The notes under the pieces: generated by a model
Database searches by the model: none
What the model saw: only the letters and a program-made list of their open reading frames with translations
Told to the model about the DNA's origin: nothing
From: Torpedo marmorata
Taxonomy: Eukaryota
Direction of reading: 5' to 3'
NCBI GenBank assembly: GCA_977017645.1
Contig: OZ360220.1
Coordinates: 224,564,001-224,628,000, forward strand
DNA length: 64,000 nt
Position numbers and translations under genes: made by a program
Shown here: positions 820-61,967 of the stretch, in pieces
How the letters are laid out: each line of letters starts with the position of its first letter
How positions within the stretch are numbered: the first letter of the stretch is position 1

Positions 820-2399
820 CTGGCCCCTAATTATTATAATGAGACGTAATTTCTTAAATAATAATTATACAATCAATTACAAATAACAATAAACCTATAA
901 CATTCAAACAATATACAAATCTTCTTTCTTCATAAGACCAGAGTTTACCAGCACATAACCTTGGAAAAAGAATGATCTTTACCATAACTCTGGATCAATA
1001 AATTCTGTAACCTGTGTAGTATACAAAAAACAACAAAATACAGTCAGTTTGCACTTATCAAAGTTCCTTTATCTCCAGAATCTTTGAGTTAGAATGTTGA
1101 CCAGTAAACCTCAAATCTTCCTCAAACAAATATATACAGTTTTCCTTTTGAATTTAACATGAGGTACGTCTTCAGCATGTCGTTTCGCTTTCTTCAGCAT
1201 TCCACTTCTCATCGGAAGAATTTGAACTTTCAGAACCAGATTTTGAATATTTATCTGATCCTCTCGACTTTAATAAACGAGTCTCTTTAACCTTTCCTGC
1301 AACAGATTTGCTTGTCCTTTTCTTTCTTTTCCACAGTTGATCATAAATAAGATAATATTCAAACGACATTATTTCTTCAAAGTCATCAACAACCACCACA
1401 TTTGTAGAAACCTTCTGTAAAGAAGTAGACTGCTCCACTTATGGCTCATACAAATCTCTAACTAAAACTGCAGTCTTTTCAACCACCCTGGTTTCTATTG
1501 CCTTTTCCTGCAATTCCAGATCCAATTTTGCAACTTTCAATTCAGTCTCATTTTATGACCATTTATTTTATGACCATTTATTAGATTCTCTTTCTGCATT
1601 CAATTCTTTCAATAAGAAAGTAATTCTCTCATTATCTTCTGAGAAATTAATAACTTGATCTGAAGTGAAAAGATCATGTGATACATTGGTACTTCTGTTG
1701 TCAGCCCTGCTGTGGTAAACTTGAAATGTTTGAATTTCTTCATCTTGCTTGTTACATTGCTTTCTTTCTACATTGCTAGTAGCTGGGTCTTCAAGTTACA
1801 TTCTTGATTGTTTTCTATAGTCAGCTGTTTTGTGTTATTAACCAATGACTTGTTCTCTTTCAAAAGATGAATCTCTTCCTCTAACCTTTTACATCTTGAT
1901 AATGCTGAATCTTTTTCTTCAATAACTATTTCTTCAGCAGTTATTATTTTCTTCCGCTTTCTGGATTTGCAAATTTTCTTTACAATTAAATCTTTCTGGT
2001 TACTGTTTTCATGATTATCCAATATTTTCAAGTCCCTTTTCAACATTTTGTTCTCTGAATACAGTTGCATTAAATTGTCAGTCACATGCTTCTTTATTCC
2101 ATCAGCGCAATTTTCTGCGTTCAGTTTTGCAGCATGTTGCGACATTTCTTCATTGACCTGGTCTGCTGTAACCTCTGAGCTACAAAAGCTACTTTCAAAT
2201 TTGTTCTGTCATTTGTTTTAGTCCTGCCTCAGACTCAATTACACAGGAATAATCACCAGAAGTATTTGCAACATCTTCTAATACTTCATTTTCATCCATT
2301 TCTGATGAAAATAATTCCTTCAATGTTGTTTTAAATGCTTGATTTATTTTCACATTGCTCTGTTTTCTTTTCTTCAAAAGTGACTTTCTTATTTACAGT

Positions 2400-4870
2400 C
2401 CTTTGCTGTTCCCATAACTCATCAAATTTCACAACCGAAATCCTGTTAACATTTATCGCTAACTGTTCCTGAGCAATATCATTATTTCTTTCCAAAGGTC
2501 CATTTCGCTTACTCTGTATTACTTCTAGTGGTTCCAAAACCTTTGGTACATCTGAACCAATCAGCATCTCTATCTCACAGCCAATTTGAGGTAAGACCAC
2601 CGTTTAATATCATTTTGATGTGGAATGTTTCCTTCGTGCACAGGCATAGTTTTCTGAGTGTATAAAATTGGAAGATCACAAAATTCTTTGCCATGCAATC
2701 CAGCAACCTCTAAGCCTGAAACAACGCTGGTTTCAATGACCTTTTCTTGTCCCATGGTTTTCAACATAATCCTCGACCTTCTTCCCTGAAGATTAAGTTT
2801 GTTCATTAGTCCCACCGTGCTAAAAGATGCAGTGCTGCCTGGGTCGAGAAATGCATATGTATGTACTGCTGAATTCCATTTCTTGGTCTTGACTTGTACA
2901 GGCACTATTGAAAGTTTGCAGTTATCCCCAGTAAGACCACTTGTCTGAACCGAGGCTATAACACTGTTTTCTACTGTTTCCTTTGTTTCTGTTTGCTCCT
3001 TTTCCAATTCCTTCTTTCTTTGATGGATATGCAGCATTCTAAGATGCTTCAAATTGCATATATTAGTTAAGTCGCTTCTTGCAGTTTTTACTGATGTGCC
3101 CTTTACACAGACAGCTAAAACATACTCCATTTTCCTTTAAGAAAGCGATCTTCTCATTATATTCCTTCTTTTCCAACCGAAAAAAAATTTCCAAAGCATG
3201 TCCATCTTTACAGAACAAACAACTCTTCTCATTAGGCAAACTCTCCTTTTCCTTAGTTACTTTATCTTTTTCTTTACTTATAACTGAAACAGTAGTAGCA
3301 AAGGTACACTGTTTCAATTTCGGACTAGGCTGAGTCAGACCTCCTTACATCTTTGTTCCCCATTGAAGTGTCTCTGGTATTTCCATATATTGGATCTGTT
3401 TCAATGTACACCTGCCATTCAAGAAAATCTACCAAATCCTTTAAGGTAGCTCTTTGATCGTATTTTTCCTGGAAATCACAAGCCAAATTTCTCCATCTAT
3501 CCCACGTCCGGTAGGGTAATTTATCTAAGGTGATTCGCATATTACCAGGCACGTCAGGCTCACGAATATTATCGATATCTTCCATAGCATTACAACATCC
3601 TCTTAAAAAGAGTGTATGCTTGTAGAGCTTTTACATCATTCGGTTTTATTGATGACCATTTAAGAGCTTTATCCATATAAGCTAAAGTAATTTGATGCTT
3701 GTTGCCAAAATGCTGTTCTAGTAAAGACTTAGCTCTGTCTAATCCTCTATCCGAGGACATATGTTGACAACTCTTTACAAGTTCCCTTGGCTGTCCTTTT
3801 GTCAATATTGCGTCTAAAATATTTCATAAACGCTTGGTACTGAAGTGGGTCACCATCAAAAGCTTGTATCTCTTTCTTGGGCAAAGAAGAGAGAGACTGC
3901 AGCTGGATCATTGATGCAGCAATTTCATTTTGTCTTCCCATGGATAATAGTACGTTGCTCTGTTCACTGCCTCTTGCAACAGGTAATGTATTTGGAAACC
4001 TCACTGGTGTAGGTTCTCCCGTATTTCTGATGCTTAACTCGAATGCCAAGGGAGCTGCAGCGTTTGACCGAACCCACGTCGCAGCTTTTTCTTCGGATGT
4101 TACCACTGGTACATGTGACTTGATAACACCATGCTCTGAGAGGATTTGTCCTTGTATTTGCATGTCTTGTACCCGTGGTACTAAAATATCTACCCTTTGG
4201 GCTGGTTTGTTTTCCTGTGGCTCTTTTTTAGAATATGACTTCTTATCATCATACACTTTAGATAATTTACTCTGAACACCAGATACCATTGAGCCTTCTA
4301 GTACCTCTATTCTGGCCCTGGCAATAGCAATGTTTGCTTCCAGCTCTTGCTGCTCCTTTCTCTGCCTTAGCTGCTGGCTCTGCCTTAGGTGCTCCTGGCT
4401 CTGCCTTAGCTGTTCCTCCTTTTCTTCCAAAACATGCTTATCCTTAAGCGATTTTTATCGTGCAAGAAAAGCGGCCAATTCAGCTTTAATCATTGTACGT
4501 GCCGATGCAGAACTTGAAGTACTAGAAACTCTGGAGCTTAAACTAGAAGAACTTTGTTTGCTTCTCCTGCTTTCAACATTTGACACACTGTCACTTGATT
4601 GTATTTCGTCCTGCAGGTCACATGTTGTCTTCTTACCTTTTTCTCCAATTCGTATTGTTCATCCTTTGCATCTTCATCCTCTTTGTTTTCTTCATCCTTT
4701 TCATTTTCTTCATCACCATTTGGTGATACATCTTCAGCCATTTCCACGTTGCTGTCTACATGTTCAGTCGTTGTCTTTTGCACTGGTTTTGCAATGTCTT
4801 CATTCCCATTAACCGAAGCAGCCTGTTCCTCCATTGCCAGCTTCAGTCTTGCAATGAGAACCTTTTTGCA
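2400..4870 (-). pseudogene. Frameshifted BEL/Pao gag plus aspartic protease
   Basis: ORF fragments 3747..4430, 3590..3805, 3325..3585, 3063..3317, 2570..3130 and 2331..2600 form consecutive gag/Zn-knuckle/protease pieces. Confidence 0.85.
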
Positions 4871-5927: not shown

Positions 5928-8900
5928 CAATGAAATGCAATTATCATCTAACCAGAGGTACAAAGAATAGTGCTATTTACAAGTAACTGCGAATAAAAGC
6001 AAGCGCTCCAGCAAACAAACAAGTATAAAAGTACTGACCGTACAATATTGGTGCAATACTGCTCAGCGCTGTGATGTAAGGTTCAGCAGGGTCACAGCCT
6101 CAGGAAAGAAGCTCTTCCTGAGCCTGCTGGTTCAGGAGCAGAGGCTCCTGTAGCACCTACCGGATGGAAGGAGAGTAAAAAGTCCATAGTTAGGGTGAGA
6201 TGCATCCTTGATAATGCTTTTCGCCCTGCCCAGGCAGCGTTTCTGATAGATGTTCTCAATGGTGGGCAATTGGGTGCCGATAATCTGTTGGGCAGTTTTC
6301 ACCACCCGCTGGAGTGCTTTACGGTCCGATACGGGACCGTTGCCATACCACACTGAGATGCCATAGGTGAGTATGCTCTCAATGGTACAGCGGTAAAAAT
6401 CCATCAGTATCCTGGGACAGAGGTGAGCTTTCTTGATGCTCCGCAGGAAATAAAGACGTTGTTGCGCCTTTTTGATCAGGATGGAGGAGTTCAGGGGCCA
6501 GGTGAGATCATCGGAAATGTGGACACCAAGGAATTTGAAGCTTGATACACGATCCACTACAGCTCCATTGATGTAGATAGGGGCATGAGTGTGGCTCCCA
6601 GCACGCCTGAAGTCCACAATGATCTCCTTGGTCTTCTGGGTGTTAAGGGCCAGGTTGTTGTCGGCACACCACATGGCCAGGTGCTGGACCTCATCCCTGT
6701 AGGCCATCTCATCATCCCCTCTGATCAGGCCAACCACCGTGAGGTCATCTGCGACATGATTATGAAGTTAGAACCACGTACAGGAGCGCAGTCATAGGTG
6801 AAAAGGGAGTACAGAAGAGGGCTCAGCACACAGCTCTGAGGCACGCTGGTGCTCAGGGTATAAGAATGGAGGAGGAGAGGTTGTCTAACTTAACAGATTG
6901 GGGTCTGTTAGTCAGAAAGTCCAAGGTCCAATTGCAGAGGGATGAGCTGATACCAAGCTGGCGAAGTTTGGCGATCAGCTTGGAGGGAATCACAATATTG
7001 AATGCCGAACTAAAGTCAATGAACAGCATTCTGAAATAAGAATTGGGGCTGTCCAAGTGGGTCAGGGCAGAGTGAAGTGCCGTGGAGATGGCATCCTCAG
7101 TCGACCTGTTGGTGCGATAGGCAAATTGATGGGAGTCCAGGGTGGTGGGCAAACAGGATTTCAAATGTTGATAGAACCAGTTTCTTAAAGCACTTTGCAA
7201 TGATGAGGGTGAGTGCAACTGGACGGAAGTCGTTCAGGCTAGTGGCAGTGGAATGCTTTGGCACTGGCACGATAGTGGCAATCTTGTAGCTTGTGGGGAC
7301 AACTGCCTGGGCAGGGACCGATTGAAAATGTCTGTAAAGACCCCGGCCAAATGCCCTGCACAGACTCTGAGCACACGGCCAGGTATGCCATCCGGACCAA
7401 CTGCCTTCCGTACATTCACCCTACACTGGGTGGCACAAACATCTGAGGTGGAAAGTGAGAGAGGCAGTTCACCAGGTGGAAGATCCGCTTTGAGGGTGAC
7501 CTCCTTGTTCCCTCGATCAAAGCGAGCGTAGAAGTAATTGAGCTCCTCGGGGAGGGAAGCAGCTGGAAGGGGGCACAATACTAGATGGTTTATAGTCTGT
7601 AATGATCTGTATGCCATGCCACATGCGCTGGGGGTCCGAGGAGTTGAGATGCTCCTCGATTCTTTGTTTGTATGCGTGTTTAGCCTGAGAGATTCCCCTC
7701 CTCAGGTCGGCCCTGGCTGAGCTGTAAGTCTTCCAGTCTCCAGACCTGAAGGCTAAATCTCGGTCTTTGAGCAGGAGGTGAACCTCACTGTTCATCCATT
7801 GTTTTTGATTAGCAAAAAATTTTATTTGTTTTTGTGATGTCACTCTATCTACACACTTGTTGATGTACTCGAGGACGAGTTGGTATATAAGTCAATATAA
7901 ATCTGAGAGTCTGTGGTAGCATGGGCAGCAAACGCGCTCCAGTCTGTGTGCTGGAACTGTTGCTGAAAAACAGAGTCAGCACCCTCAAGCCAGATCTTAA
8001 TAGACTTCATTGTGGGTTTCACACGTTTAATGACTGGGAAACAGAAACAATGAAAGATGGTCGGACTGTCCCAGGTGGGGGAGGGTAGTGGCTTTGTAAG
8101 CATCAGCCACATTTGTGTAGACATGATCTAAGGTTTTATTTCCCCTTGTGGTGCATGATACATTTTGGTAAAATCTTGGAAGCACGGTACGTAGATTGCA
8201 ATGATTAACGTCCCCAGCGACAATAAAGGCTCCGTCTGGATGCAATGTCTGCAGCTTGCTGATAGCAGCACTGAGGTCTTTCATGGCGTCCAGTGGTACA
8301 TTAACTGCAACAGCAATGATACATGTAAACTTTTGTGGTTGATAAAAAGGTCTACACTTAATAATCAGGTATTCCAGATTCGCAGAGCAATAAGTATCAG
8401 CAATGGTAGAGTTAGTGCACCATGATCGATTCACGTAGATGCATTACCACCCTCTCTACTTTTATCCATCACTACTGCCTCTCTGTCAGCCCTGAAGACC
8501 GTGCGCCCTTCCAGTTCCACCACGTTGTTTGGGACATCGCTGTTTAGCCACGTCTTTGTAAAAAACATGACGTTGCAATCCATAAGACTTCTTTGTGTGA
8601 GGGTCCAAATCCTTAGTTCGTCCAGCTTGTTCGTCAGAGACCGAACATTGGCGAGGAAGATGCTAGGTAGTGCTGGCCGATGTGGATTCAGCCTTAGCCT
8701 AGCACACAGGCCTCCACTCTTCCCCCGTCTTTGTTTTCGGTCTCGATGCCGGCGCCGGGCCCTTCCGGTCAGAGTGAGTTGAATACGCGCCCGCGGTGTC
8801 CTTACTAACTCCGGAGGCAGTTGTTCAAAGTTGAATGGATAATCCAAATCTGTATTGTTGCATCAGTAATAAATGACCAAAAGTGACTGTTTGCTGTAGG

Positions 8901-17779: not shown

Positions 17780-19620
17780 GCATAGAAAATCACCCCAACT
17801 CACCCATGCCAACCAAGATGCCCAATCGAAGTTAATCCCATTTGCCTGCATTTGGCCCATATCCATACCTATCTATGTATCTATCCAAATGTCTTTTGAA
17901 CATTGCAATTGTGTCTGTCTCTGTCACTTCCACTGGCTCATTCAATATACCCACCACCCTCACTGTGCTCAATAAGCCCCTCAGATACCACTTAAATCTC
18001 CCCCCCTCATCTCAAACCTTCTACTCCTCTACCCTAAGAAAAAGACTGATCTATCTCATCTATGGTTCTCATAATTCTATAAATCTCCAGAAGTTCACCC
18101 CACAGCCTCCTTCGCCACAGGGAAAATTTATCCCAGCCTATCCAGTCTCTCCTCATAACTCACACCCTCCAGCCTCAGCAACACTATTTTGCATGTTTGC
18201 CAGTTTAATCAGATCTTTCTTTTATCATGGGAACCAGAAATGTACACAATACTCCAAATGTGGTCTCACCAATGTCTTGAACAGCTGTAACATGACAACC
18301 AAACTCTTGTACTCAATGTCCTGACTTATGTGGGCTCACTCTTAAGTTTTAAGAATAAATTGGATAGATACATGGATGGGAGAGGTCCGGAGGGTTATGG
18401 AATGGGTGCAGGTCAGTGGGACTAGCGGACTGATGTTTTGGCACAGACTAGAAGGGCCGAATGGCCTGTTTTCTGTGCTGTAGTTTTCTATGGTTTTAAT
18501 GAAGGCAAATGTACCATATGCCTTCTTCACCACCCTGTCATCTGTGTCGCCACTTTCAGGAAACTATGCACCTGTATCCCAATGTCTCTCTAATACACAA
18601 TAATCCACCAGGCTGTGCTGTTCACTGTATATCCCCTGCCCTGGTTTAACTTCCTAAAATATATCATTTTGCCTTTTTCCAAGTTAAATTCTATCAGCCG
18701 TTCCTTTGTCCACTTTTCCAATTGATTATAGCCGTCTTCACTGTCCACTCTATCACCAATTTTGGTATCATCTGCTAACTAACTAATCATGCCAACTGCA
18801 TTCTCATCCATATTGTTAATATACAGTATATGACAAATTACCCAACATTGATCTCTGTGGAACCCCATTGGTCCCTGGGCTCTAATCTTTAAAACCCTCC
18901 AGTACATCCTCTGACTCCTACCACCAATCCAATTTTGTATGTGTGTGTCTGGCTCACCATGAATCTCACATGATGTGACCTTTTAAACCAGCCTACCATG
19001 CAGCACCTTGTCAAAGGCCTTGTTAAAGTCCACGTAGACAACATCTGCTGCCCTATTTTCATCAATTCTCTTGGTCACCTCTTCAAAAGATTTGTGAGGC
19101 ATGACTTCCCATGCACAAAGCTATGCTGACTATCCCTAATCAATTCTTGACTTTCCAAATGCATTTAGATCATCCCTCAGGAACCCTCTCTCAAAATCCC
19201 CTCCTGTAACATGTCCCATCACTGATTTTAGGCTCAGCAGCCTGTAGTTCCCAGGCCTGTCCTTGCATACCTTCTTAAATAAAGGCACTGCATTAGCCAC
19301 GTTCCAGTTTTCTGGCACCTCACCCATAGCTAATAAGGATAAAAAAATCTCTGCCAGGGCCCAGCAATTTCGTCCCTTATTTTCCACAATGTCCCAGGTT
19401 ACACCCACACAGGCCTGAGGGATTTATCCACCTTTATGCATTGCAGGACTGCCAACCCTTTTTTGTAATGTTGATATGCTTCAGGACACTGCTGCTCTCT
19501 TCCCTGAACTCACTAGCTTCCACGTCCTTCTCCAAGATAAATACAGGAAAGAACTATTCATATAAAACCTCGCCCATCTCCCATGGCTCCACACACTGAT
19601 GACCATACTGATACTCAAGG
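17780..19620 (-). mobile_element. Decayed CR1-type LINE fragment, with an opposite-strand CR1 3' tail at about 18342-18495
   Basis: GEVPENWNVANAVPLFKK..DRPGNYR in ORF 19136..19408; typical CR1 RT nucleotide motifs. Confidence 0.8.
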
Positions 19621-20384
19621 TCCACTGACAATTGAATATTACTGTACATGCCTGTGCAATTCCATGTTTTTAATGTATCATATGGACTTTAGATCCAGAA
19701 GTTTAATAAAATAATAAACTATACGATAGTAGCATTAAGTAATGCTAGTGAATAACGCACAGAAACATTGTATTCCTGACAGAATTTCAAGGCCATTATC
19801 TCTATTCACATGTGAAATTGGAATGGCATTACATACTAATTCGGAAAACCAAAGTTATTATCACAATCTTGACAGAAGATTTGGTATTCCATGCACTTAA
19901 TGATTAACTTGTCTCACTGCCGAGGCATTGTCTGATGGAAACATTTGCCAGTTGCCTCCAAATCCAGCAATTCATAGTAGGCCCAATATTTTTGTTGGGC
20001 TGTTCTCGTGTATACAATTTACCTAAAGATCCACTTTGCAACTGCTGAGCAAATAGACAAATGCAGTGTAGTTCTGTTTTTACTGTAACTTGAAAATAGC
20101 ACAAGATGCAAAAATGTAGCACGGAATGAAACAATTGCTCTAATAGAAACTGGATATAAAATACAGTTCTCTTTTTGAACTGTGCAGAGCAGCTGCACAA
20201 CATTCCACCAGGAGCTTGAGAATAGGAAAAGGAAGACAGGACTTATCTAATGATGATGAAAATTAATGATGGAAAAGTTAAACCATCTATGGCCTGGCCT
20301 TGGACCAGCTGAAGATAATGGGGAAAATAAACACCTTCACCCTCTTCTACAATGTGTAAGCAAAAGCAATGCAGGGAATGAGTG

Positions 20385-21510
20385 AAATTCAGAATCAGAA
20401 TTTATTGTCATGAACAAGTCACAAAATTCGTTGTTTTGCGATAGCATCACAGTACAAACATTTATATAAACCACCTCACAAAGATAATTAAAAATAGTGC
20501 ACAAAAAGTCAAAGTAAGGCAGTGTCTTTGGTTCATTGATCATTCAATGGCAGCGGGGAAGAAGCTGTCCTTGTGCCGCTGAGTGCTCGTCTTCAGGCTC
20601 CTTAACATTTTTGCTGATGGTAGCAGAGTGAAGAGGGCATGGCCTGGGTGGTGGGGGTCCTTGAGGATAGAGGCTACTTTCTTAAGACACCGCCTCTTGT
20701 AGATGTCCTTGGAGTGAAGTGTAGTGCCAGTGATGTCGCAGGCCGAGTTAACAACCCTCTGGAGTTTTTGCGTGTCCTGAACATTGGCACCTCTGTGACG
20801 CAACCAGCCAGAATGCTCTCCACGGTACATCCGTAAAAGTTTTCGAGAGTCTTCGGTGACATACCGAATCTCCTCAAACACCTCACAAAGTATAGCTGCT
20901 GGCGAGCCTTCTTCGTGATTGCATCAACATGGAGGCTCCAGGACAGTTCCTCGGAGATGTTGACACCCAGGAATTTGAAGTTCCTGACCTTCTCCACTAC
21001 TGAACCCTCGAATGTTGAGTGCAAGGTTGTTGGTGTGACGCCACTCAAAGAGCTGATCTATCTCCCTCCTGTACGCTTCCTCATTGCCGTTTGTGATTCT
21101 GCTGACAACCGTGGTGTCATTGGCAAATTTGTAGATAGCATTGGAATTGTGCCTGGCCATACAATCATGGGTGTATAGTGAGTAGAGCAGTGGGTTAAGC
21201 ACGCATCCTTGAGGTGCGCCTGGGTTGATAGTTTGATAGTCAGTGAGGAGGAGATGTTGTTTCCAATTCGTACTGTCTGTGGTCTTCCGATGAGGAAGTC
21301 AAAGATCCAGTTGCAGAGGGGGGTGCAGAGGCCCAGGGTTTGGAGCTTGTTGACCAGCAATGAGGGAATAATGGTGTTGAAGGCTGAGCTGTAGACAATG
21401 AAGAGCAGCCATATGTATGAATTGCTGTTTTCGAGGTAATCCGGAGCTGAGTGGAGAGCCAGTGATATTGCATCTGCTGTGGAGCAATTGTGACGATAGG
21501 CGAATTCAGC
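20385..21510 (-). mobile_element. 5'-truncated Rex1/Babar LINE
   Basis: PLLYSLYTHDC, YKFAND, FKFLGVNISE, KKARQQLYFVR, HPGHALFTLLPS; tail gacaataaattctgattctga. Confidence 0.88.
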
Positions 21511-23179
21511 CGCGGTGAATCATCAAGTTCAATTACACAATAGAACTAGTAAAAATTATTGCAATTTCTCTGCTCTTTCAAGATGATTTTGTGTGTAACA
21601 TAGACAGGGGACTTTTCCCAAGCATTGATGCATCCTGTATTTTATTTTCATTCTGTTACTGCATAGTATATATTTGCTTAAAATACTTCAGTTTCCATTA
21701 CTAAATTAGCCAAGGAGACTAAATGCAGTTTTCCCAACGATTATTTAAAAATTATTTTAATGCTTATCATAGCATTACTTCCTGTCATTATGAACAGTGG
21801 CTTGAAGTCTGCATAATGGCTAATCTGGGCCCTCAAACTGACTCTCTTGCCAAGAAAATTCAAAACGAAAACCTCAAGAGGCAAATGCAAATCATCTTTT
21901 GAAAAGAAAACCCAATCGTGCATCACAAGCAAGATGGCAGGCTCCCTAATGTGAAAATAATGCCTATTATTCAGCTCTGTTTCCTCAGCTGCCAAACCAA
22001 TCCCCATGGGACCAATAATTTCCAGGCTGTAAGAAATAAAGGAAGCATGTCTGAAAAACAGACCTGAGGCCCATGACAACTCATTTATCCTCACTAGCTT
22101 AAACTCAAGCATAATGTGGTTAATGCACGAATAACCGCATCGTGTTGATAAATAACTTGATGTGCTGTGAATTCAAACAATTAGATGGTCATTAAACGCC
22201 AAATAATATTATATAATTCTATGCTGCACCTGGTGTAAATTATGACATTTTAATTCACCTACATACTCATTATGATACATGTTATGCATGTGTGGCTAAC
22301 TGCATCTTAATGAAAGAAACATAATAGGGGAAAGAACAAAGTACATTCAAGCATTAAAAATGTCATTTTTAAAGATGACCTCTATACACATGAGGAGAGT
22401 AATTAGCAGAGTACAAGACAAGCTAAGGATTTTCATTGGCTTATCAAGCCCACATTATAGTTTGAAGAACTGAATTTTGTTAGAATTTAAGAGAGGCAAT
22501 TGTAAAATGTCATGGGCAATTTGTTATGAAGACACAAAAACTATACATCTCAAACAATCGCAAATTAAAGTGTTTCCTACATAAAGAAGAAACCTGTTAA
22601 TTTCCATTACTTTCTAAAATGGTAATTGACTATCCAATTTGGACAGGAAATTATTTATGTCATTCAGAAGCATTGGAATAAAATTGCTTGAAACTGTTTT
22701 CTAGACACAAAATGTGCATTTCAGGTGTGCCAATCAATCAGTACTCAAGTACTAGGCAAGACCCAGACTGGCTCCCATTCCTCACTTGAATGGATAAGCG
22801 GGTTACCAGTATTATCCACAGTGCTGAGTGGCAGCTTGCCCAATTAGTGGAAAGGAGGAACATGGGAAAGAAACAGATGCATTTTAACCACAGGAGCAAA
22901 GAATGGTTACAATAGTCAATAATGGAGATAGCAGGCAATGATACCCCACCAAATGGCCAACACCCTCCCCCTCACCTTCTCTAGCATTTTCGCTTGGACG
23001 TACAGGAGACTGGCAGGGAGTGGGAAAACTGAATCCATCTAGCACACAGACAACCTGACAGAGCTTGAAGTCCAATGAAGTTAAACGGCCTAACCATCAT
23101 CTTCTGTTTCATCAATGCTTTTCCAGCATTGCAGATCAGAAATGGATTTGTTGGCAAGTTTATACAGTATGCAATCTGG

Positions 23180-31105: not shown

Positions 31106-33195
31106 TTTTTTTTTTTTTTAATATAATTCATCGGAGCTCAGGGTACAAGCAGATTTGACTCTTGTCCAGCCCATTAGTGTCAAACATTCCTTTTGTGCAA
31201 TGTGTCCTGTGATCCATGCTTTCTATTCTCATGGTCTCAGTATTTATGAGCTAATATGTAATTGGAATCAAGCAGAATAAAGCAGCATGTTCAACCTTCT
31301 ATTTTAGCAGTCGACCTGGAGATGAGAATTGTGGTTGCATTTCTGGAATAACCCAAGGTAGATGAGTTCATGGTCCTTTTTTGGAAATTAGCCAGCACAC
31401 ACACAGATATGTGTGGATGGGACTGCCAATAATGATCGATAAATTGATGAAGGTACAAGAGATGGGTACACATGGAGACTGATAGCTTCTCCTGGTGCAG
31501 CAGCTGGTGGTTCCTTGTGACTTCAATTTAAAAGACAAAGGCAGCAATTTTTAAAATCAGTCCATTTATGAAAATGGTGCCGAACTGAATCTGTGATTAT
31601 GGTGGGATGTGCTCAAGTGTGGGGATGCATTGCAGCTGAAGGCTAGAAATTTGAGGAGGATCAGAGCTCTCATCTCAACCTATCTCTTGAAGTCATGATA
31701 GAGTTTATGGCATTGCTCCATGTTAGTCAGGGCTGTGTTCTAGGTGATGAGCTTAGCCATCACATTCCACAGGCTTCTCCCTGGTCCTTGAAGGGTGCCT
31801 GGCATGCACTGGTGTGGATTTAATCTACCAGGACATGCAAAGCAATAAGGCTTAGAGCACACTCCATCCTCTCTCATGTCTTTTTGCCAGTCATGGTGGT
31901 CATCAAATCTAAAGCAGAAAGTTTGTTTACACATAGAACATCTCTTCAAGCAAAGCAGCACTTGGCTTAGTTCTGGAAGCTGCATGAAGTTTAAACAGGA
32001 GGCATCAGAACCCAGTTCCTCTTGTATGGAAGTCTTGCCAGAAAATAAAAGTGCTTGCTTTGATGGACAAGAATTGTGAATTTATAACCACAATCTTAAT
32101 GTGACAAAATGGTTCATAATGGATGCACCATACAATGACATTTTAAACTCAAAGGCTAATGAATTTCTTGATATAATTAGTTGTTTTCAGATGTGGAAAC
32201 TTATCCAGAATGCAAATTGAATCAGCAGTCTCAGATGGTGCTATTTCTTCTTGAATTATTCAGAAAAATCATGCACTGACAACACCAAAATCCTCTTATA
32301 CAAGAGTGCACATGTATGGCTTTTGATTTGTGTCTTCAGATCTAAACTTGCTGCTGAAGTTTCAAGATTCCAAAACTTGTATGGGGTTTTTATAATCCCA
32401 CAATTCAAATCTGCTCAAGAAGAGCCAAGGACAACCAAAATGGTGATAAGACACAAATGTATTTGAATTTGCAATAACACATAAATGGTGAAGCGTTAGA
32501 TTTGACATCCTATTTTGCCAGCATGTTAAACCTTTAGGAAATGATGCTAGGAAAGTAAGTGTTTTTGATCAACATTTTGTACAAATTCAGTGAAAATGCC
32601 CAGTTACTGAAGTAACACTAACTTTTCAAAACCGCTGCAAAAGAGTGATCAAGAAGAGCAAATACACCACCAATTGTGTCATTGTGCACTTTTAAATTAT
32701 GCATTTAGTTGCAAAATTAAAAGAGATTTGTAGTGGGAAACAAATGCTCACTGAAGTGTTTAAAACGTGGTCATGAGTTTGTACATCTTGCCAAATATCA
32801 ACCCAACAATACAGATATGCATCACCCATGACTTTGTGCAGCATAAAGCGAATTCTTCCTCCCAGTAGCTTTTCAATGATAACTAATGATCATGTAATGA
32901 CCAGGTAGTCAATTTGAGGCACTCAATTACCCAGTATAAGTCAGAAAGCAATGAGATACAAAGTATAGAAAGAGCGCAAATATCCTCAGGTGGTCTTTTG
33001 AGATCAAATGTAAAATCTATTCCAATATTTAATAGTCATATAGAAATAGTACTAAGTATTTCATGGACAGGCAGGTTATAAGAAAATAAAGAACTAATGT
33101 TTTCATGTCCATTTGAAAAAAAAAAATTTTGTCTTACTACCTCCACATTTTAAATATGATAAGATGGTGGAAGTGGGATATTTGTTAATACTTAC

Positions 33196-33212
33196 TGTGC
33201 CTGGGTCCCTCT
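33196..33212 (-). CDS. TLE1: TLE1-like 17-nt micro-exon (about exon 8), completing ERDPGT
   Basis: Minus strand reads ggaaacag|AGAGGGACCCAGGCACA|gtaagt. Phase 1 in and phase 0 out fits the preceding exon; the peptide resembles the recalled mammalian TLE1 DREPGT. Confidence 0.88.
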
Positions 33213-33328
33213 CTGTTTCCACAGTAATCACAAAATGCAAAGATATGGTGGTTCAGATACAAAGGCAAAAAAAGAAACAAAGAAAAAAGAAATTAGAACA
33301 CAAGCAGACAGATGCTTTCACAACAGCT

Positions 33329-33334
33329 TTTATT
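33329..33334 (-). terminator. Candidate intronic polyadenylation signal AATAAA with a downstream GU/U-rich tract
   Basis: Minus strand reads gAATAAAagctgttgtgaaagcatctgtctgcttgtgttctaatttcttttt, about 117 nt upstream of the micro-exon. Confidence 0.45.
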
Positions 33335-36297
33335 CTTTCATTTCATTGCACATTCCTAATACATTTTTGTTTAAAGTTCCACTTTAACATTTTTCAGTAT
33401 AGCAGTTCTTTGCATACAACCCCTGGCCTCAGAACCACTGACAGAATAAATTACTGCTGGGTTATTAAATTAAAATGGCATCAAGAGAATTATTTGACAA
33501 GTGCAATTCTTAGTCATTAAATTATATGGATTCACAGCATATTGATTCTCAATACAGATTTGTTTTTAATAAGAAAAATCTGTTGAATTTAAGAGAACAA
33601 AATTATTTGACACGATTACAAACTGAAAACCTAGGAACATCAAGTACTTTTTTCCCTCTCAGTACACATTTCAAAAAGATGACCAGTATAGACAGAAAGA
33701 AGAATAAACCAAGAATATGAACAGCTCCCTTCTGCTTCTTGCCAGTGTAACAATCCACAAAACAAACTTAGGTGAAATGAGGAAAATTGCACAGTGGAAC
33801 CCTCTAAATAAAGCTCCAGACCAATTCTGTTTCAGCTCAAATGGAATTTCTTTTACATTAAAAATATCCATATTTCTAGATCCCCTCCATCTTAAATGTC
33901 ACTATGTGACTAATGTTTTGTGTTTCTTGACAATTTTTTTAATATTTTTTTTAATGGACTGGGAAATGGAAAGAGATAAAATTGAAGTTGGTGCATGTTT
34001 TAATTTAGATTAGTGGAGAGAACAAATATTTATTTGGTCCATGGTTTTCCTCACACCACTCCAGCTGCTCTTCAGTTTTCATTAATATTAGAAATTATAT
34101 TTTCATGATGAAAATTACACCAATATCATCGCTCCATCTGCAAGAACTGTACAAAATTTGAAAGCATAATTCAACAATTCTCAAAAGCATAGAGTTAAAA
34201 AAAACATCAAATTTAGATGGACTTGTTTTTTTTTTTTTTTTTTTTTTAAAAAGACAGGGGCAGCAGGGGAGACAAAAAAAAGGACCAAAAAAAATGACGA
34301 AGAGTGCAGCTTTCAGTGTTTGTCTATGCTGAATACTGATTACAAAAAGGACCAAACATTTTGTAGGCATGATGCATGGCATACAAGCAGAAAATATATT
34401 GTTATCAGATACTTGGACCATGCACAAATCTTTACTAATTTAGTCAAAACACATGTGGCCCATTTAGTTTTTCTCTTGACTACTTTTGACCCAAGCGGTC
34501 AGAAAACTGTGACCTAATTCACATGGATAAGGTTTGTTCAAAGTATTTAGGTAAAGAAAAAATCTTGCATCTGGCAAAGCCACTGTATATTTTAGATTAC
34601 TATTTAATCCAATTTTTAAAACATATCATTGGTTATGTAACTGTTAGAGCTTCCTTAAGAAAAAGGAAACAAAAGTACCGGTATATTGCACTTCAAATTG
34701 CCAAGTTCATTTTTTTTTAAATATAGTCAACAGGTTCTGGAAAGTTTGCATAGATATGTGGTGAAAAAGATGCACTATAATTTGCTGTACTCACAGGAGT
34801 ATATGTTTATGCATCATGTTAATTAAGTTGTAACATTTGAACCTTGTACCTCAAGAGAAGCAAGATCGTCTGGTTACAAAAGACTGCCTGAGGCAAGTAT
34901 GAAATTCTATATTGTTTTTGTGAAATCATTCTCATACAAGAGGGGAGGAGAAAAAAAAATGAGAATAGTAACCCATTGCCTGGAGTTAGAATGTGCACAT
35001 AATTTGAACATTTATTAAACAAAAAGCAAACAAATAAACATTTGATCGGGTTAATTTGATATGGCCAATGGGGACATGTATGGCCATGGGTGCAAATGAG
35101 GATCAACAGTTATTGGCAATTCACAATCCAATCAAAAGCAATCACTTAAGGCAAAGGTTCTATCCATGAGCTAACAAGACATTTAGATTAAGACACCTAT
35201 AAGTCACTTCAAACATTTTTTTTTAATTGTTGAATACAAAAGTGCCTCTGTCTCACCCGTTTTAAATTTGTTGTTTTAATAGTTCTGAAAGCAAACGTGA
35301 TAATTGGAAACGAAGAAAAAGGAATGGCTGTTTATGTAGGCATCAGTGCAATCGACTCCTTAACCCAATCATACAATTAGAAATGAAGATGCTGCAATGA
35401 CCAGATCTCACCAGAATAGGTCTACTGAACAAATTGCAAATGTTGCAGGAAGTAGATAGAATTAACAATCAATTGGCTTAGATAGACTAATTTCATAGAC
35501 ATATATTAATTAACTTGAGGACAATTAAAACAGCATAAAAGCAAGCAACCTTGTATTATTCCCATATAAACCATACATCATTAATTGCTGCTGCATTATT
35601 TCTCAAAACATGCCTTCCCCCAGGTGAAACAGTTTTTAATGAAGCAGCTGTATTGTAATAATGTGGCGAGGGGATTGGCACATTTCCATTCTACATCACT
35701 TCATTTACTCTGGTATCCAATTTGCATTTGGACTCGAGCCTTTGTCTAGCCACTTGAAACACTTTAACAAATGCACAGTAGCAACCAAGAAACTAGAGAT
35801 CAGTCCACAGACTGTAAACATTACAAATTAATTGACACGAATGCTGTGGAATGCAATCCTCTTGGCCCATGTAATTACAACATTAGCTGCATTAAAATGG
35901 GACAGCACTCATTATATTAAAACTAAGTTTAGAGCATGGCCTAAGCATGTCCTTGCCTGTTGAATTCCCACTTAATAATGGATTTTACACCCAAAGGTTT
36001 TTTTTTAAATGGGTATAATACTTCTATGTAAAAGTTGTGCTGCACATTTTAATGGTCAGCCAACAAAGAATATGCATTTATAATGTGGGTCAAACAGAAA
36101 ACAACAACAAATTCTTCAAAAAATAGTAGGTTCAGTTTTACAGAGCTAAAATTTAAACTGATTGTTTGGCCAATTGCTTAATACATTTTTTGCATCATTT
36201 TAATGATTTTGAAAACTGTACATACACAAAATTTAACTACGACAGAACTGAAGTTCACAAAACATTTTCAATCAGGCCTGCCTGCCTTGCTTCTCAC

Positions 36298-36502
36298 CTC
36301 TGTGGTGATCCGATTCATGATGCTTCTTATCTTCTTTCATGGAAAGGTGGGATTGTCCACCCAAAGCACTTGATAGAGCCAGAAGACCTGCACTGCTACC
36401 AAGTGAGGGGAGTGACGGAGGCTGGAGTCCTGAGGGATGAGGTGTGAGAGGTACTGGAGGTCCATGACCATGAGAGAGATGCTGAGCCTGAAGTTGCTGT
36501 TG
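36298..36502 (-). CDS. TLE1: TLE1-like GP-domain exon (205 nt; about exon 7), [68 protein letters not shown]
   Basis: Hand translation (absent from the ORF track). Acceptor atggacag|, donor G|gtgaga, phase 0/1. [19 protein letters not shown] is the TLE1-type motif. Confidence 0.95.
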
Positions 36503-36685
36503 CTGTCCATATTAGTATCACCACGAGTTGACCAATAAAATACAAGAAAAATGTAGTTATTTCAGAAAGAAATTCCTATGGAAAGTCAAAAAAGTTTAAC
36601 AGTGAGTAGAAAATATCAATTTTATCTCCTTGATTTCAATGAATACACACATTAGTGGGAAGCAATTGTGGAAGAAATTGATTTA

Positions 36686-53800: not shown

Positions 53801-55641
53801 TATCTCCCACCCATGCTTGTAACCAACCACCTCCTACCCATAAGTCTACTGCCTCAACACCTGGCACACCCCCAACCTGAGACATCTACGATCATCCCCT
53901 CATCAAATGACAGAGGATGTGGAGGAAAGGCTTTCCTCATGCACGGTTAATCTCTTGTATTACAGATTTTTCAAACACCAAGCGCTTGTACAAAGCATTT
54001 GATTAGCATCTGTCTAATGCACCTCTGGCAGGCACTAACCAAATCCCAAGACAAAACATCTAATTTTATATTACAACATTGCACATCACTAATTAATTTC
54101 TATTAAACCTTGTGCAATTGTTAAAGTAAATTGCTAAAAATTAGCACATTGTAAATCAGTATGACACATCAGTAGCAGCAATAGACAAATGAACACAATC
54201 TGATAACAGAATGAGTAAAACTATTCTATACAGAAGTGCAATTTAAATAACTTTTGATTCCCAAAAATCTAGAATGACTTTTGGTTCTTTAAAAAGCTTA
54301 AAAGATCAAGCCCAAGTCCTGATTTCTTAGTTTAATTATGAGCATTTAGTGCATGACCCCCATTGTCCTTTACACTAGGTCACGTCCCTTCACGATGGAG
54401 GCAGATGCCATAAAATGGGTCAGGCTTTATTCATACCGCAGCTGTTGTTAGTATGAATAGATAGACTTCTGTTGTCTGCTTCCCTATGGGAGACAGGTTG
54501 ACACACTGCACGTTTAATGATGGAGCAAAGGTCCCAAGATTTGTCAGCCCAATTTTATGCTGCACTGGCTTGTCAAGATACACCGGTGTCTTTTATGCAA
54601 AATGATGCATGTGTCAGAGCATGAAACCAATTGTCCTACACAAAATAATTATGAAAACAGCCAATGGAAGTGTGAGAGAAAAGACAAGCAGAGTGACAGA
54701 GATAACTAGACCAAAACTGGTAGAGTATTTCATGAATCCACTGCCTAGTTAGGGAGACAATATTGCCATTTTGATAAGCGTTTGTAGTTTAATTGATACC
54801 TCAATTTTCTTAATTAAGATCTATGACCTTCAAACATATTCACCTCTCAGAAATTAAGTGGATATTTAGATGCAGTTGGATTTTAGGCACAACAACCGAA
54901 CAATTAAGGGACTAGTCCAAAAATTCCATGTACCTAGATGGAGAATGTGGCCAGGTTCTGCATGAATAGTTTGCAGCTTCCTTAACAAGAGGAAAATGAA
55001 GACAGCATTGTAACTAAAGAGAAATAATGTAAAATGGATGGGGTAAGTATGGCAAGGAAGAAAGCATAAAAGGGTTTAGTATCTTTAAAATTGGATAAAT
55101 GGCAAGACCTAATGAAATATTTTCCAGGCTGTAAAGATGACATTGAGACTCTTTTCATCACTATAATGCCAGCGACTGGAGGGCTCCTAAGTCTACCTTT
55201 TTGTTTTACTACAAATGAAATGTAGCTTCATTACTAGATAAATAATGAGAAACAATTCTGAGGAACAGAATAAATAAGTTTACTTAAGCACAGATTAATT
55301 AGGAACAGTCATTATGAATTTGAAGGAAGGAGCTTCCTTTCTTGATGGAACTTTTTGAGAAGAGGAGGGTAGTCAATGAGCACTCTGTTGTTCAATTTTT
55401 AACAAGGCCTTTGACAAGATCCCAAGATAGACTGGTCAAGATAAACATTGGATCTGAAGTCACCTCTGAGACAGGAAGAAGCAGTCAAAGGTTCATGCAC
55501 GTTTTTGAGATTGGAAAGCCTTTCCCAATTGAGTTCCTCAGGATTCCATACTCAATTTCTTGCATTTTAGAATGTATATTAAATACTTATACTTACATAC
55601 AGGGGCTATGATATCAAAGCTAGCAAATGCATCAAGATATA

Positions 55642-56905
55642 CAGTGTCCTCCATAATGTTTGGAACAAAGACTTTTTTTTCCTTTATTTGCCCGTGCTCC
55701 ACAAATTTAAATTTGTAATCAAACAATTCACATGCAATTAAAGTGCACATTCTAGATTTTATTCAAGGTTATTTGTATAAATTTTGTTTTAGCCATGTAG
55801 AAATTACAGCACTTTTTATACATTGTAAAGGGACTGGTATTCCAAGACCTCCGCTGCTGATGATAGAAGAATTCTCATCATAATGAAGAAAAATCCCCAA
55901 ACGTCTGTCCGACAAATCCGAACCACATTTCAGGAGGCAGGTGTGAATATATCAATGACTACTGTCTGCAGAAAACGTCATGAACAGAAATGCAGAAGCT
56001 ACACTGCAAGATGCAAACTGTATGGTTTGGATCTTGGGTAGTTCCTTTACGCCTCCACACTTTGCTCTTGCCATCACTCTGATGCAGGTTAATCTTGGTC
56101 TCATCTGTCCATAAGACCTTTATCCAGAATTCTGCAGGCTCTTTTAAATACTTCTTGGCAAACTGTAATCTGGTCATCCTTTCTGTGGCTAACTAGTGGT
56201 TTGCATCTTGCAGTGTAGCCTCTGTATTTCTTTTCATGAAGTCTTCTGCAGACAGTAGTCATTGACATATACACATCTGCCTCCTGAAGTGTGTTTCTGA
56301 TCTGTCGGACATACATTTGGGGATTTTTCTTCATTATGATGAGAATTCTTCTGTCATCAGCAGTGGAGGTCTTCCTGCGAATACCAGTCTCTTTGCGATT
56401 ACTGAGCTCATCAGTATGCTCTTTCATCTTAATGATGTTCCAAACTGTTGATTTTGGTGATCCTAAGGTTTGGGCGATGTCTCCAACTGTTTTATTCTTG
56501 TTTTTCAGCCTCATAATGGCTTCTTTAACTTTCATTGGCACAACTCTGGTCCTCATGTTGAAAAATGGCAACTACAGACTCCAAAGGTGATCAAAAACTT
56601 AGAAGCAAGCGTAGCTTTCTTATACCTGCACCAATGAAGCAACTAAACATACCTGAGTAATCACAAACATCTGTGAAGCCAAATGTCCCAAACATTATGG
56701 TGCCCAGAAATGAGGGGTGCATGTATAAAAAGTGCTGTAATTTCTACATTGTCAAACCAAAATGTATACAAATAACCTTGAATAAAATCTGGAAGGTGCA
56801 CTTTAATTACATGTGAATTGTTTGATTACAAATTTAAATTTGTGGAGCATAGGGGCAAATAAAGGAAAAAGAGTGTCTTTGTCACAAACATTATGGAGGG
56901 CACTG
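55642..56905 (-). mobile_element. Tc1-family transposon, internally deleted, with long TIRs and an internal inverted duplication; inserted in an old CR1 fragment
   Basis: cagtgtcctccataatgtttgg / caaacattatggagggcactg with TA TSD; about 180-bp TIRs. Transposase N-terminus IAQTLGSPKSTVWNII..RKTSTADDR..ARCKPL, then RLQFAKKY..VLWTDETKINL. Confidence 0.93.
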
Positions 56906-59900: not shown

Positions 59901-60003
59901 AGCAAGTTATCCTAAAATACCAACACACAAACTTATACACATAAAAGTAAGCGAATAAGATGGGTATACACACTGTAAGAGGCAGACTGGGAAGCCCACG
60001 TAC

Positions 60004-60078
60004 CCCGATGATGCCATTCAACTCTGCCATGGTCACTTGCTTTGCACGTTCCACGGCCTGTGCCACCTGTTGTTGATG
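60004..60078 (-). CDS. TLE1: TLE1-like Q-domain exon (75 nt; about exon 6), [25 protein letters not shown]; an alternative donor extends it to 59974 (+[10 protein letters not shown])
   Basis: ORF 59659..60087 contains the conserved TLE peptide. Acceptor ttctttctgtgaacgag|; donors |gtacgt (60003) and |gtgtgt (59973). Confidence 0.95.
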
Positions 60079-61904: not shown

Positions 61905-61967
61905 TTCCTGAGACAGAAAGGGAATCACTTGTGCACAAATCGTATTCAATCTTTTCGCTATTTCTGT
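61905..61967 (-). CDS. TLE1: TLE1-like Groucho co-repressor, Q-domain exon (63 nt; about human exon 5), TEIAKRLNTICAQVIPFLSQE
   Basis: Hand translation of the minus strand gives the TLE Q-domain peptide. Flanked by a T-tract acceptor (tttttag|) and donor |gtaagt; phase 0/0. Confidence 0.93.

Follow-up and report, generated by a model that had tools for sequence, protein, structure and literature searches.

A probable cartilaginous-fish orthologue of the intronic poly(A) site of human TLE1

We analyzed a 64,000-nucleotide (nt) stretch of the Torpedo marmorata genome (contig OZ360220.1, positions 224,564,001 to 224,628,000; hereafter the window), whose minus strand we identify from its coding sequence as the middle of a cartilaginous-fish gene for the Groucho protein TLE1. 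All features described below lie on this strand unless stated otherwise, and coordinates are those of the window. The 3,085-nt intron (GT...AG, 33213..36297) between the GP-domain exon and a 17-nt micro-exon ends in what we identify, from exact sequence matches, as the orthologue of the intronic poly(A) site of human TLE1. Our overall reading, which we hold with good confidence, is that this orthologous site is likely used in the fish to yield a short protein made up of the Q and GP domains. Taken separately, it appears very probable that the site is a conserved poly(A) site in actual use, and probable that its function is production of the short protein. The fish, too, would then likely make a TLE1 without the WD40 domain, and the switch would predate the split between sharks and rays and the bony vertebrates, roughly 450 million years ago. 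An earlier note on this DNA had proposed an old choice between splicing and polyadenylation giving a Q- and GP-only TLE1, a proposal that the mapped human isoform and the homologous 3' end now support; its coordinates for the GP exon, the intron, the read-through tail, the AATAAA, the 117 nt from there to the micro-exon, the micro-exon itself, and the GU/U-rich tract were all confirmed in the sequence.

Homology to the human TLE1-IPA 3' end

The human transcript TLE1-IPA (TLE1-201, ENST00000376463) was reported from breast-cancer cells as a minor truncated transcript of prognostic value, and its termination within the same intron was confirmed by 3' rapid amplification of cDNA ends (3'RACE) (PMC12456218). 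According to the same source, it encodes 200 amino acids, eight of them new beyond residue 192, and its mRNA has a half-life like that of the full-length mRNA. We compared the human RACE sequence (Fig. S11; 316 nt ahead of the A tail, counted by eye) with the fish intron by eye, and found two blocks of exact identity: 17 nt at 33439..33455, and 21 nt at 33343..33363, the latter starting with UGUA and located 8 nt before an AATAAA in both species. The hexamer (33329..33334) and the three nucleotides after it are also those of the human sequence, resulting in an order common to both species of 17-nt block, 21-nt block, and hexamer plus 3 nt (33334-33326). The two blocks are separated by 80 nt in human and by 75 nt in the fish. 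The human A tail begins 17 nt past the hexamer, and the cleavage site predicted for the fish, a CA at 33313..33314, lies 16 nt past it.

For a 330-nt sequence compared with this intron, the expected number of chance matches is 2.4e-6 for a 21-mer and 3.9e-4 for a 17-mer. Among 364 unrelated 330-nt pieces of the window, two shared at least 17 nt with the intron, both through A-runs, and of 2,000 random sequences one reached a 17-nt match and none a 21-nt match. An 11-mer shared by human and fish at 33508-33498 was not counted, as 0.8 such matches are expected by chance. The exact blocks, together with their identical spacing to the hexamer, thus mark the site as the orthologue of the mapped human poly(A) site.

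The hexamer alone would be meaningless as evidence, since AATAAA occurs three times in the intron against 3.2 occurrences expected from composition; the site stands above chance because it is homologous to a mapped one. Only one of 13 AATAAA/ATTAAA hexamers, that at 33334-33329, is followed by a U-rich tract (T fraction 0.66, compared with at most 0.44 for the other 12), with the caveat that any intron end has a pyrimidine tract and that the tract here is the intron's own. UGUA, the CFIm-type motif, occurs upstream of the hexamer at 33363 and 33418. Downstream, a GU-rich and then U-rich tract (33258..33312) forms a candidate downstream cleavage element, within which the micro-exon's branch point and pyrimidine tract also lie. 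Hexamer, upstream UGUA, and downstream GU/U-rich element are the layout of a composite intronic poly(A) terminal exon, and the first 2,985 nt of the intron would become such a composite last exon upon use of the site.

Five sequencing runs, none recorded as RNA and all presumed to be of RNA origin, share 11-19% of the words of 33100-36600, and four of them were aligned to 32500-34200. Run X1 (99+% alike) yields a single contig, 33784-33313, at a depth of 4.9, which ends on the CA 16 nt past the hexamer and agrees with the transcript end near 33310 that had been predicted from the sequence. This contig and the GP exon together make up 0.19 of 33100-36600, equal to the share of X1, which suggests that X1 contains the GP exon and the 470 nt leading up to the site, and not the middle of the intron. 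Runs X2 and X4, from another species (90-95% alike), have contigs over 33401-33921 and 33403-34139, at depths of 419 and 634 that were left out of the argument. In X4, the 158 nt closest to the signal carry three substitutions, compared with 38 in the adjoining 579 nt (Fisher p 0.019); the boundary was chosen after inspection of the data and, with 38 of the 41 places listed, the three unlisted ones were assigned to the far part. None of the four aligned runs has a contig in 32500-33312, an absence that carries no evidential weight. Taken together, the contigs give a hint of cleavage at 33313.

The read-through tail in vertebrates and paralogues

Reading through the donor of the GP exon adds eight residues, (G)EKQGRQA, before a TGA at 36274-36272 (tail at 36272..36297), such that the stop is codon 9. 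The first two residues are dictated by the donor itself (G/GTGAG) and are therefore no evidence for selection on the peptide. To place this tail, we surveyed 207 proteins and used the 81 that are shorter than 300 residues and have G or D directly after a GP end of TLE1 or TLE4 type; the 126 left out were long forms, other paralogues, or proteins without a motif match. The stop lies exactly eight residues past HHR in 62 of the 63 short TLE1-type proteins and in none of the 18 TLE4-type proteins, which extend 2 to 141 residues. The mammalian tail given in the earlier note as GE-x-x-G-basic is indeed found as GERPGKPD, in cattle (NP_001091489.1), orangutans, bats, beaver, and ground squirrel. Several birds carry GERHGRPD, and a rattlesnake protein named GRG1-S, a coral snake, and a skink carry GERHGKPD. 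The tail of the arowana, GERPGKID in a record labelled partial, has seven of eight residues in common with mammals. Open reading frame (ORF) calls on unspliced DNA would look the same, and hence the survey demonstrates conserved read-through and not expression.

The fish tail GEKQGRQA is identical to GERHGRPD at four of eight residues and to GERPGKPD at three, where two of these identities are forced by the donor and the last two residues have been altered by a tandem 4-nt duplication within the tail (36268..36289). This duplication, absent from the earlier note, shifts the reading frame such that an end in PD-stop became QA-stop, with the stop kept at codon 9; the shifted frame at 36282-36268 still reads GRPD-stop, the end known from bird and reptile tails. 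The ancestral tail therefore probably ended in G-R/K-P-D-stop, with the last two residues changed in the lineage of the window and the stop position unmoved. In a gene model of Callorhinchus (P0001), the corresponding sequence is GERQAKQNW, with W at codon 9 and the frame continuing. Judging from these sequences, the end of the peptide is looser than the RNA signals in cartilaginous fishes.

A codon-9 stop is missing from all four long paralogues of this genome, the frame of the TLE6-like gene running well beyond that codon, and the blocks shared with human are absent from the four paralogous micro-exon loci. BLAST of the first 400 and last 410 nt of the intron against five paralogous loci gave nothing under an expectation value of 0.25. 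The intron end of the TLE4-like gene (locus L004, ~2250-2450) does contain an AATAAA with a nearby UGUA, 184 nt before the micro-exon acceptor, and the other three long paralogues lack AATAAA within 260 nt of theirs; in addition, TLE4 models of pika and elephant end in HQRGE-stop (P0094, P0071). A corresponding site in TLE4 is possible, but a single hexamer in 260 nt is close to what chance would give.

Overlap with the micro-exon branch point and alternative readings

The last 100 nt of the intron are free of AG, and within this zone lies the only branch-point consensus of the last 200 nt (CTAAT, 33292..33296), ~80 nt before the acceptor. A strong pyrimidine tract runs from this branch point to ~33258, and the sequence adjoining the acceptor is rich in purines. 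At 33313, the predicted cut falls 17 nt before the branch point, placing branch point and pyrimidine tract 17-55 nt past the cut. This distant branch point, which the earlier note did not include, overlaps the candidate downstream poly(A) element, and the anatomy, taken with what is generally known of RNA processing, suggests that splicing and cleavage are mutually exclusive here. The double role for the U-rich tract proposed in the earlier note is compatible with this anatomy. The donor of the GP exon is of ordinary strength (seven Watson-Crick pairs and one wobble pair with U1, like another TLE1 donor), so a contest at the intron's 3' end is more likely than one that depends on a weak donor.

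In cleavage, CFIm acts on UGUA, CPSF on AAUAAA, and CstF on the GU/U-rich element, and 3' splice sites are recognized by SF1, U2AF65, and U2; competition between intronic polyadenylation and splicing is familiar from IgM and similar cases. At the TLE1 site, cleavage factors and the early factors of the micro-exon 3' splice site would compete for the same 55 nt at the end of the intron. If splicing came first, the poly(A) site would be lost in the lariat and transcription would go on across a 37-kb intron and reach the WD40 exons. Were cleavage to come first, the branch point would be severed from the GP exon and the donor read through, giving a short mRNA with a 3' untranslated region (UTR) of ~2.96 kb and a Q and GP protein of 200-210 residues lacking the CcN, SP, and WD40 regions. 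A minority of fish transcripts would likely be terminated in this way at ~33313. Like general intronic polyadenylation as outlined in PMC11802343, the arrangement combines an unused 5' splice site, an in-frame stop, an intronic poly(A) signal, and a truncated protein. The usual picture of competition with splicing given there is that of a long intron with a weak donor, whereas the TLE1 intron is short for its gene, has an ordinary donor, and has its poly(A) signal superimposed on the branch point of the exon that follows. Skipping of the micro-exon would give HHRE-stop, ending one codon into the next exon; this would be a third outcome without WD40, and a likely substrate for decay.

Human TLE1-IPA and the predicted fish transcript agree in gene, in the use of the intron after the GP exon, in the addition of eight residues and a stop, and in a cut 16-17 nt past the hexamer. 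They differ in the tail (GEKQGRQA in the fish, GERPGKPD in mammals) and in the predicted fish 3' UTR of ~2.96 kb. In locus, intron, position of the stop, and poly(A) site, the predicted fish form would be orthologous to both human TLE1-IPA and mouse Grg1-S. According to PMC12456218, TLE1-IPA is a minor isoform that rises and then falls after oestradiol and correlates positively with the full-length form, which means that a strongly regulated switch is not shown even in human. Of the old regulated choice between co-repressor and antagonist put forward in the earlier note, the age is supported, and regulation in the fish and antagonism are not established, Grg1-S itself repressing a TCF reporter (see below). 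It is conceivable, at somewhat less than an even chance in our estimation, that since before the split of sharks from bony vertebrates the intron end has acted as a hard-wired either-or switch, with the downstream element and the micro-exon branch point sharing the same 55 nt and the 21- and 17-nt blocks, unchanged from ray-like fish to human, serving to fix how much short Groucho is made relative to long.

Several observations weigh against use of the site for a short protein in the fish. In X1, six of 480 contig letters are unaligned, probably at the 33313 end, and no poly(A) tail was seen; contigs cannot formally prove a transcript end, and the depth is only 4.9 in a run whose RNA status is presumed. 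The X2 and X4 contigs end ~90 nt short of the predicted cut, X3 has no contig aligned within 32500-34200, and the boundary in the X4 comparison was set after the fact. The 63 TLE1-type proteins of the survey form a redundant and largely unnamed set, which may stem from ORFs called on genomic or unspliced contigs; the named protein matches include no short TLE1 of a cartilaginous fish, an amphibian, or a coelacanth. Conservation of the tail is not strict within the cartilaginous fishes, as seen from the 4-nt duplication in the window and the Callorhinchus model without a stop at codon 9. The predicted 3' UTR is long, and the human protein is known by overexpression only (PMC12456218).

These points leave room for other readings. 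The site could be real and used, and act to throttle full-length TLE1 before the 37-kb intron, with the short protein a tolerated by-product in cartilaginous fishes. In favor of this are RNA signals kept letter for letter and a peptide end that drifts (frameshifted here, and with no codon-9 stop in the Callorhinchus model), a long 3' UTR, and a next exon 37 kb away. However, arowana and mammals share seven of eight tail residues and the duplication leaves the codon-9 stop in place, and the human mRNA is stable and rises in level with the full-length form (PMC12456218), such that we regard throttling as unlikely. Improbable to a greater degree is that the conserved blocks serve splicing of the frame-critical micro-exon, with the hexamer a passenger and the fish intron slowly spliced or retained instead of cleaved. 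Since skipping leads to an early stop, strong selection for inclusion of the micro-exon is to be expected, and the acceptor, purine-rich at its proximal side and with a distant branch point, would fit such a need, as would the lack of a directly seen A tail. Against this, the blocks lie upstream of the hexamer at a fixed spacing, in the manner of upstream poly(A) elements and with the hexamer included; in human cells cleavage does occur at this site, the four paralogous micro-exons do without such blocks, and the X1 contig ends 16 nt past the hexamer before reaching the micro-exon.

Chance, finally, would invoke an AT-rich intron, a common hexamer, a donor-forced GE, and an early stop. The AATAAA count does equal expectation, every intron read-through runs into a stop, and 24% of stretches of this length are repeat-free, but the 21- and 17-nt identities to the human 3' end at matching spacing (found by eye), together with a tail length fixed in TLE1-type and not in TLE4-type proteins, make this explanation exceedingly improbable. 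That a cartilaginous fish has its stop in the same position and has the same poly(A) elements argues for an old programmed product rather than noise. We therefore favor the reading of an orthologous, conserved poly(A) site that is likely used to make a short TLE1.

Short Groucho proteins and the setting of the gene

The short protein would keep oligomerization and TCF-type binding through the Q domain, whose dimer structure has been solved, and lose WRPW/eh1 binding through WD40; its tail is too short for a structural judgement. It would likely be a partner-dependent modulator, dominant-negative for WD40-dependent partners and a repressor for Q-dependent ones. Tagged and overexpressed human TLE1-IPA is nuclear and dimeric, and reduces the oestrogen induction of TFF1 and GREB1 (PMC12456218). 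In PMC3698143, Grg1-S bound TCF4 and itself repressed a TCF reporter, and the authors note that several short forms contradict the idea of a dominant-negative role. A partner-dependent modulator fits the data on both TLE1-IPA and Grg1-S, which "antagonist" alone does not; the roles of short Grouchos as antagonists or repressors have been argued mostly from overexpression (PMC2997355, PMC3698143).

Mouse Grg1-S resembles the predicted fish protein as a Q- and GP-only product of the Tle1 locus (PMC3698143, PMC2997355); its own sequence did not appear among the named protein matches. It differs in being described as an alternative splice product and in its association with repression of TCF/beta-catenin, not with antagonism of long Grouchos (PMC3698143). 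The rattlesnake GRG1-S (P0177) has 200 residues and ends with the same kind of tail. The predicted fish product ends eight residues past GP, and an orthologous 200-residue protein (P0167) has TLE_N as its only Pfam domain. The short form had also been described as AES-like, which holds for domain content, AES/TLE5 (GRG5) likewise having Q and GP without WD40, and does not hold for the locus or the tail. AES/TLE5 has a locus of its own, with a proposed origin by TLE2 duplication (PMC2997355), and an AES-like gene is found separately in this genome, on contig C54 at ~48.38 Mb, minus strand (L010:9635-9862). As the window feature is an intron of a full-length gene and the AES-like locus lies elsewhere, the feature is not AES/TLE5.

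The GP exon of the AES-like gene runs without a donor into DDGVQKPD-stop, the AES-like protein of Callorhinchus ends in DEGVQKPD, and AES-type proteins of bony vertebrates end in DG[DE]KSD, which resembles the CcN exon and not the intron tail. AES as a fixed copy of the read-through isoform was considered and rejected: the DNA likeness of the tails is at chance level (p 0.26; 467 of 1,105 random windows score as well), and the AES-like tail is nearer to the CcN exon (p 0.026 in one of four comparisons). In its length and last three residues (KPD), the AES-like tail does equal the mammalian TLE1 read-through tail, possibly by convergence.

The isoform itself is already known, as Grg1-S and TLE1-IPA, and its presence in reptiles is on record through the rattlesnake GRG1-S entry in UniProt. 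New as far as we have searched are its age and the overlap of poly(A) elements with a branch point. The main text of PMC12456218 makes no mention of Grg1 or of cross-species conservation of the isoform, the parts of PMC9692235 considered do not deal with conservation of the TLE1 site, and among literature listings and the openings of abstracts we found no publication on its conservation outside mammals. If our reading is correct, few traceable intronic poly(A) switches would be older than this one. The bases likely to control the short form can now be named, namely the hexamer and the 21-nt block, and editing either would abolish the short form with the coding of full-length TLE1 intact. The short form would thus be separately removable, making the question of antagonist or repressor directly testable in vivo.

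Assignment of the gene to TLE1, as opposed to TLE4, TLE3, or TLE2, is based on the best named matches and on the micro-exon sequence, which together identify it as TLE1. The GP-plus-tail query (76 residues) is 92% identical to TLE1 of Mobula over 96% of its length and 91% identical to that of Heptranchias, and its closest named matches are the TLE1 proteins of Mobula, Heptranchias, and Scyliorhinus. The micro-exon (33196..33212), required for the full-length frame, encodes ERDPGT including the flanking G, a peptide found unchanged in all three; the TLE4-like gene of the same genome, 2 Mb away on the opposite strand, has DRDSVK. The GP exon (36298..36502, 205 nt) ends in phase 1, as seen from protein match and coordinate check. 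Upstream, tblastn with P0010 places a Q-domain exon (TEIAK...SQE) at 61905..61967, with boundaries checked, and tblastn likewise the last Q-domain exon at 59974..60078 (Pfam TLE_N, 38.3 bits against a cut-off of 32). Past the micro-exon, the same strand carries the remaining TLE1 exons in their proper order (P0010 residues 208-780, with all WD40 exons among them) at a distance of 37-79 kb, the first of them 37 kb away by search of the own genome. One gene thus has the Q domain upstream and WD40 exons downstream, as in a long Groucho/TLE. The last Q exon has two candidate donors, 60003 and 59973, 30 nt apart, the distal one adding 10 residues at the Q/GP border, and both forms of this border are found among vertebrate TLE1 proteins (short forms of 200 and 210 residues).

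A fifth long TLE gene lies on C54 at 47.54-47.63 Mb, plus strand, with a Q exon, a GP exon, the micro-exon DRDQGS, and WD40 exons. It is arranged tail to tail with a TLE2-like gene near the AES-like gene and is still full-length; by the human gene order, it would presumably be TLE6.

The intron was said to be free of recognizable transposons, and we found none by BLAST against the window and a further 99 kb from other loci (163 kb of the fish's own DNA in all), with zero cover; the intron has a single match in its own genome in a search that skips common words. Since 24% of window stretches of equal length are likewise uncovered, this freedom from repeats is weak evidence. An Rfam scan of 33100-36600 gave three matches, all far under their gathering scores. 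A run of 22 A on the sense strand of the intron (34247-34226) presents an internal-priming hazard for oligo-dT 3'-end data. Elsewhere in the window, the long TLE1 introns contain broken reading frames at ~2300-4700, 6100-8450, 18600-21550, and 55500-56200, which by eye we take to be the gag/protease region of a long terminal repeat retrotransposon, reverse-transcriptase pieces of long interspersed nuclear elements, and a Tc1-type transposase.

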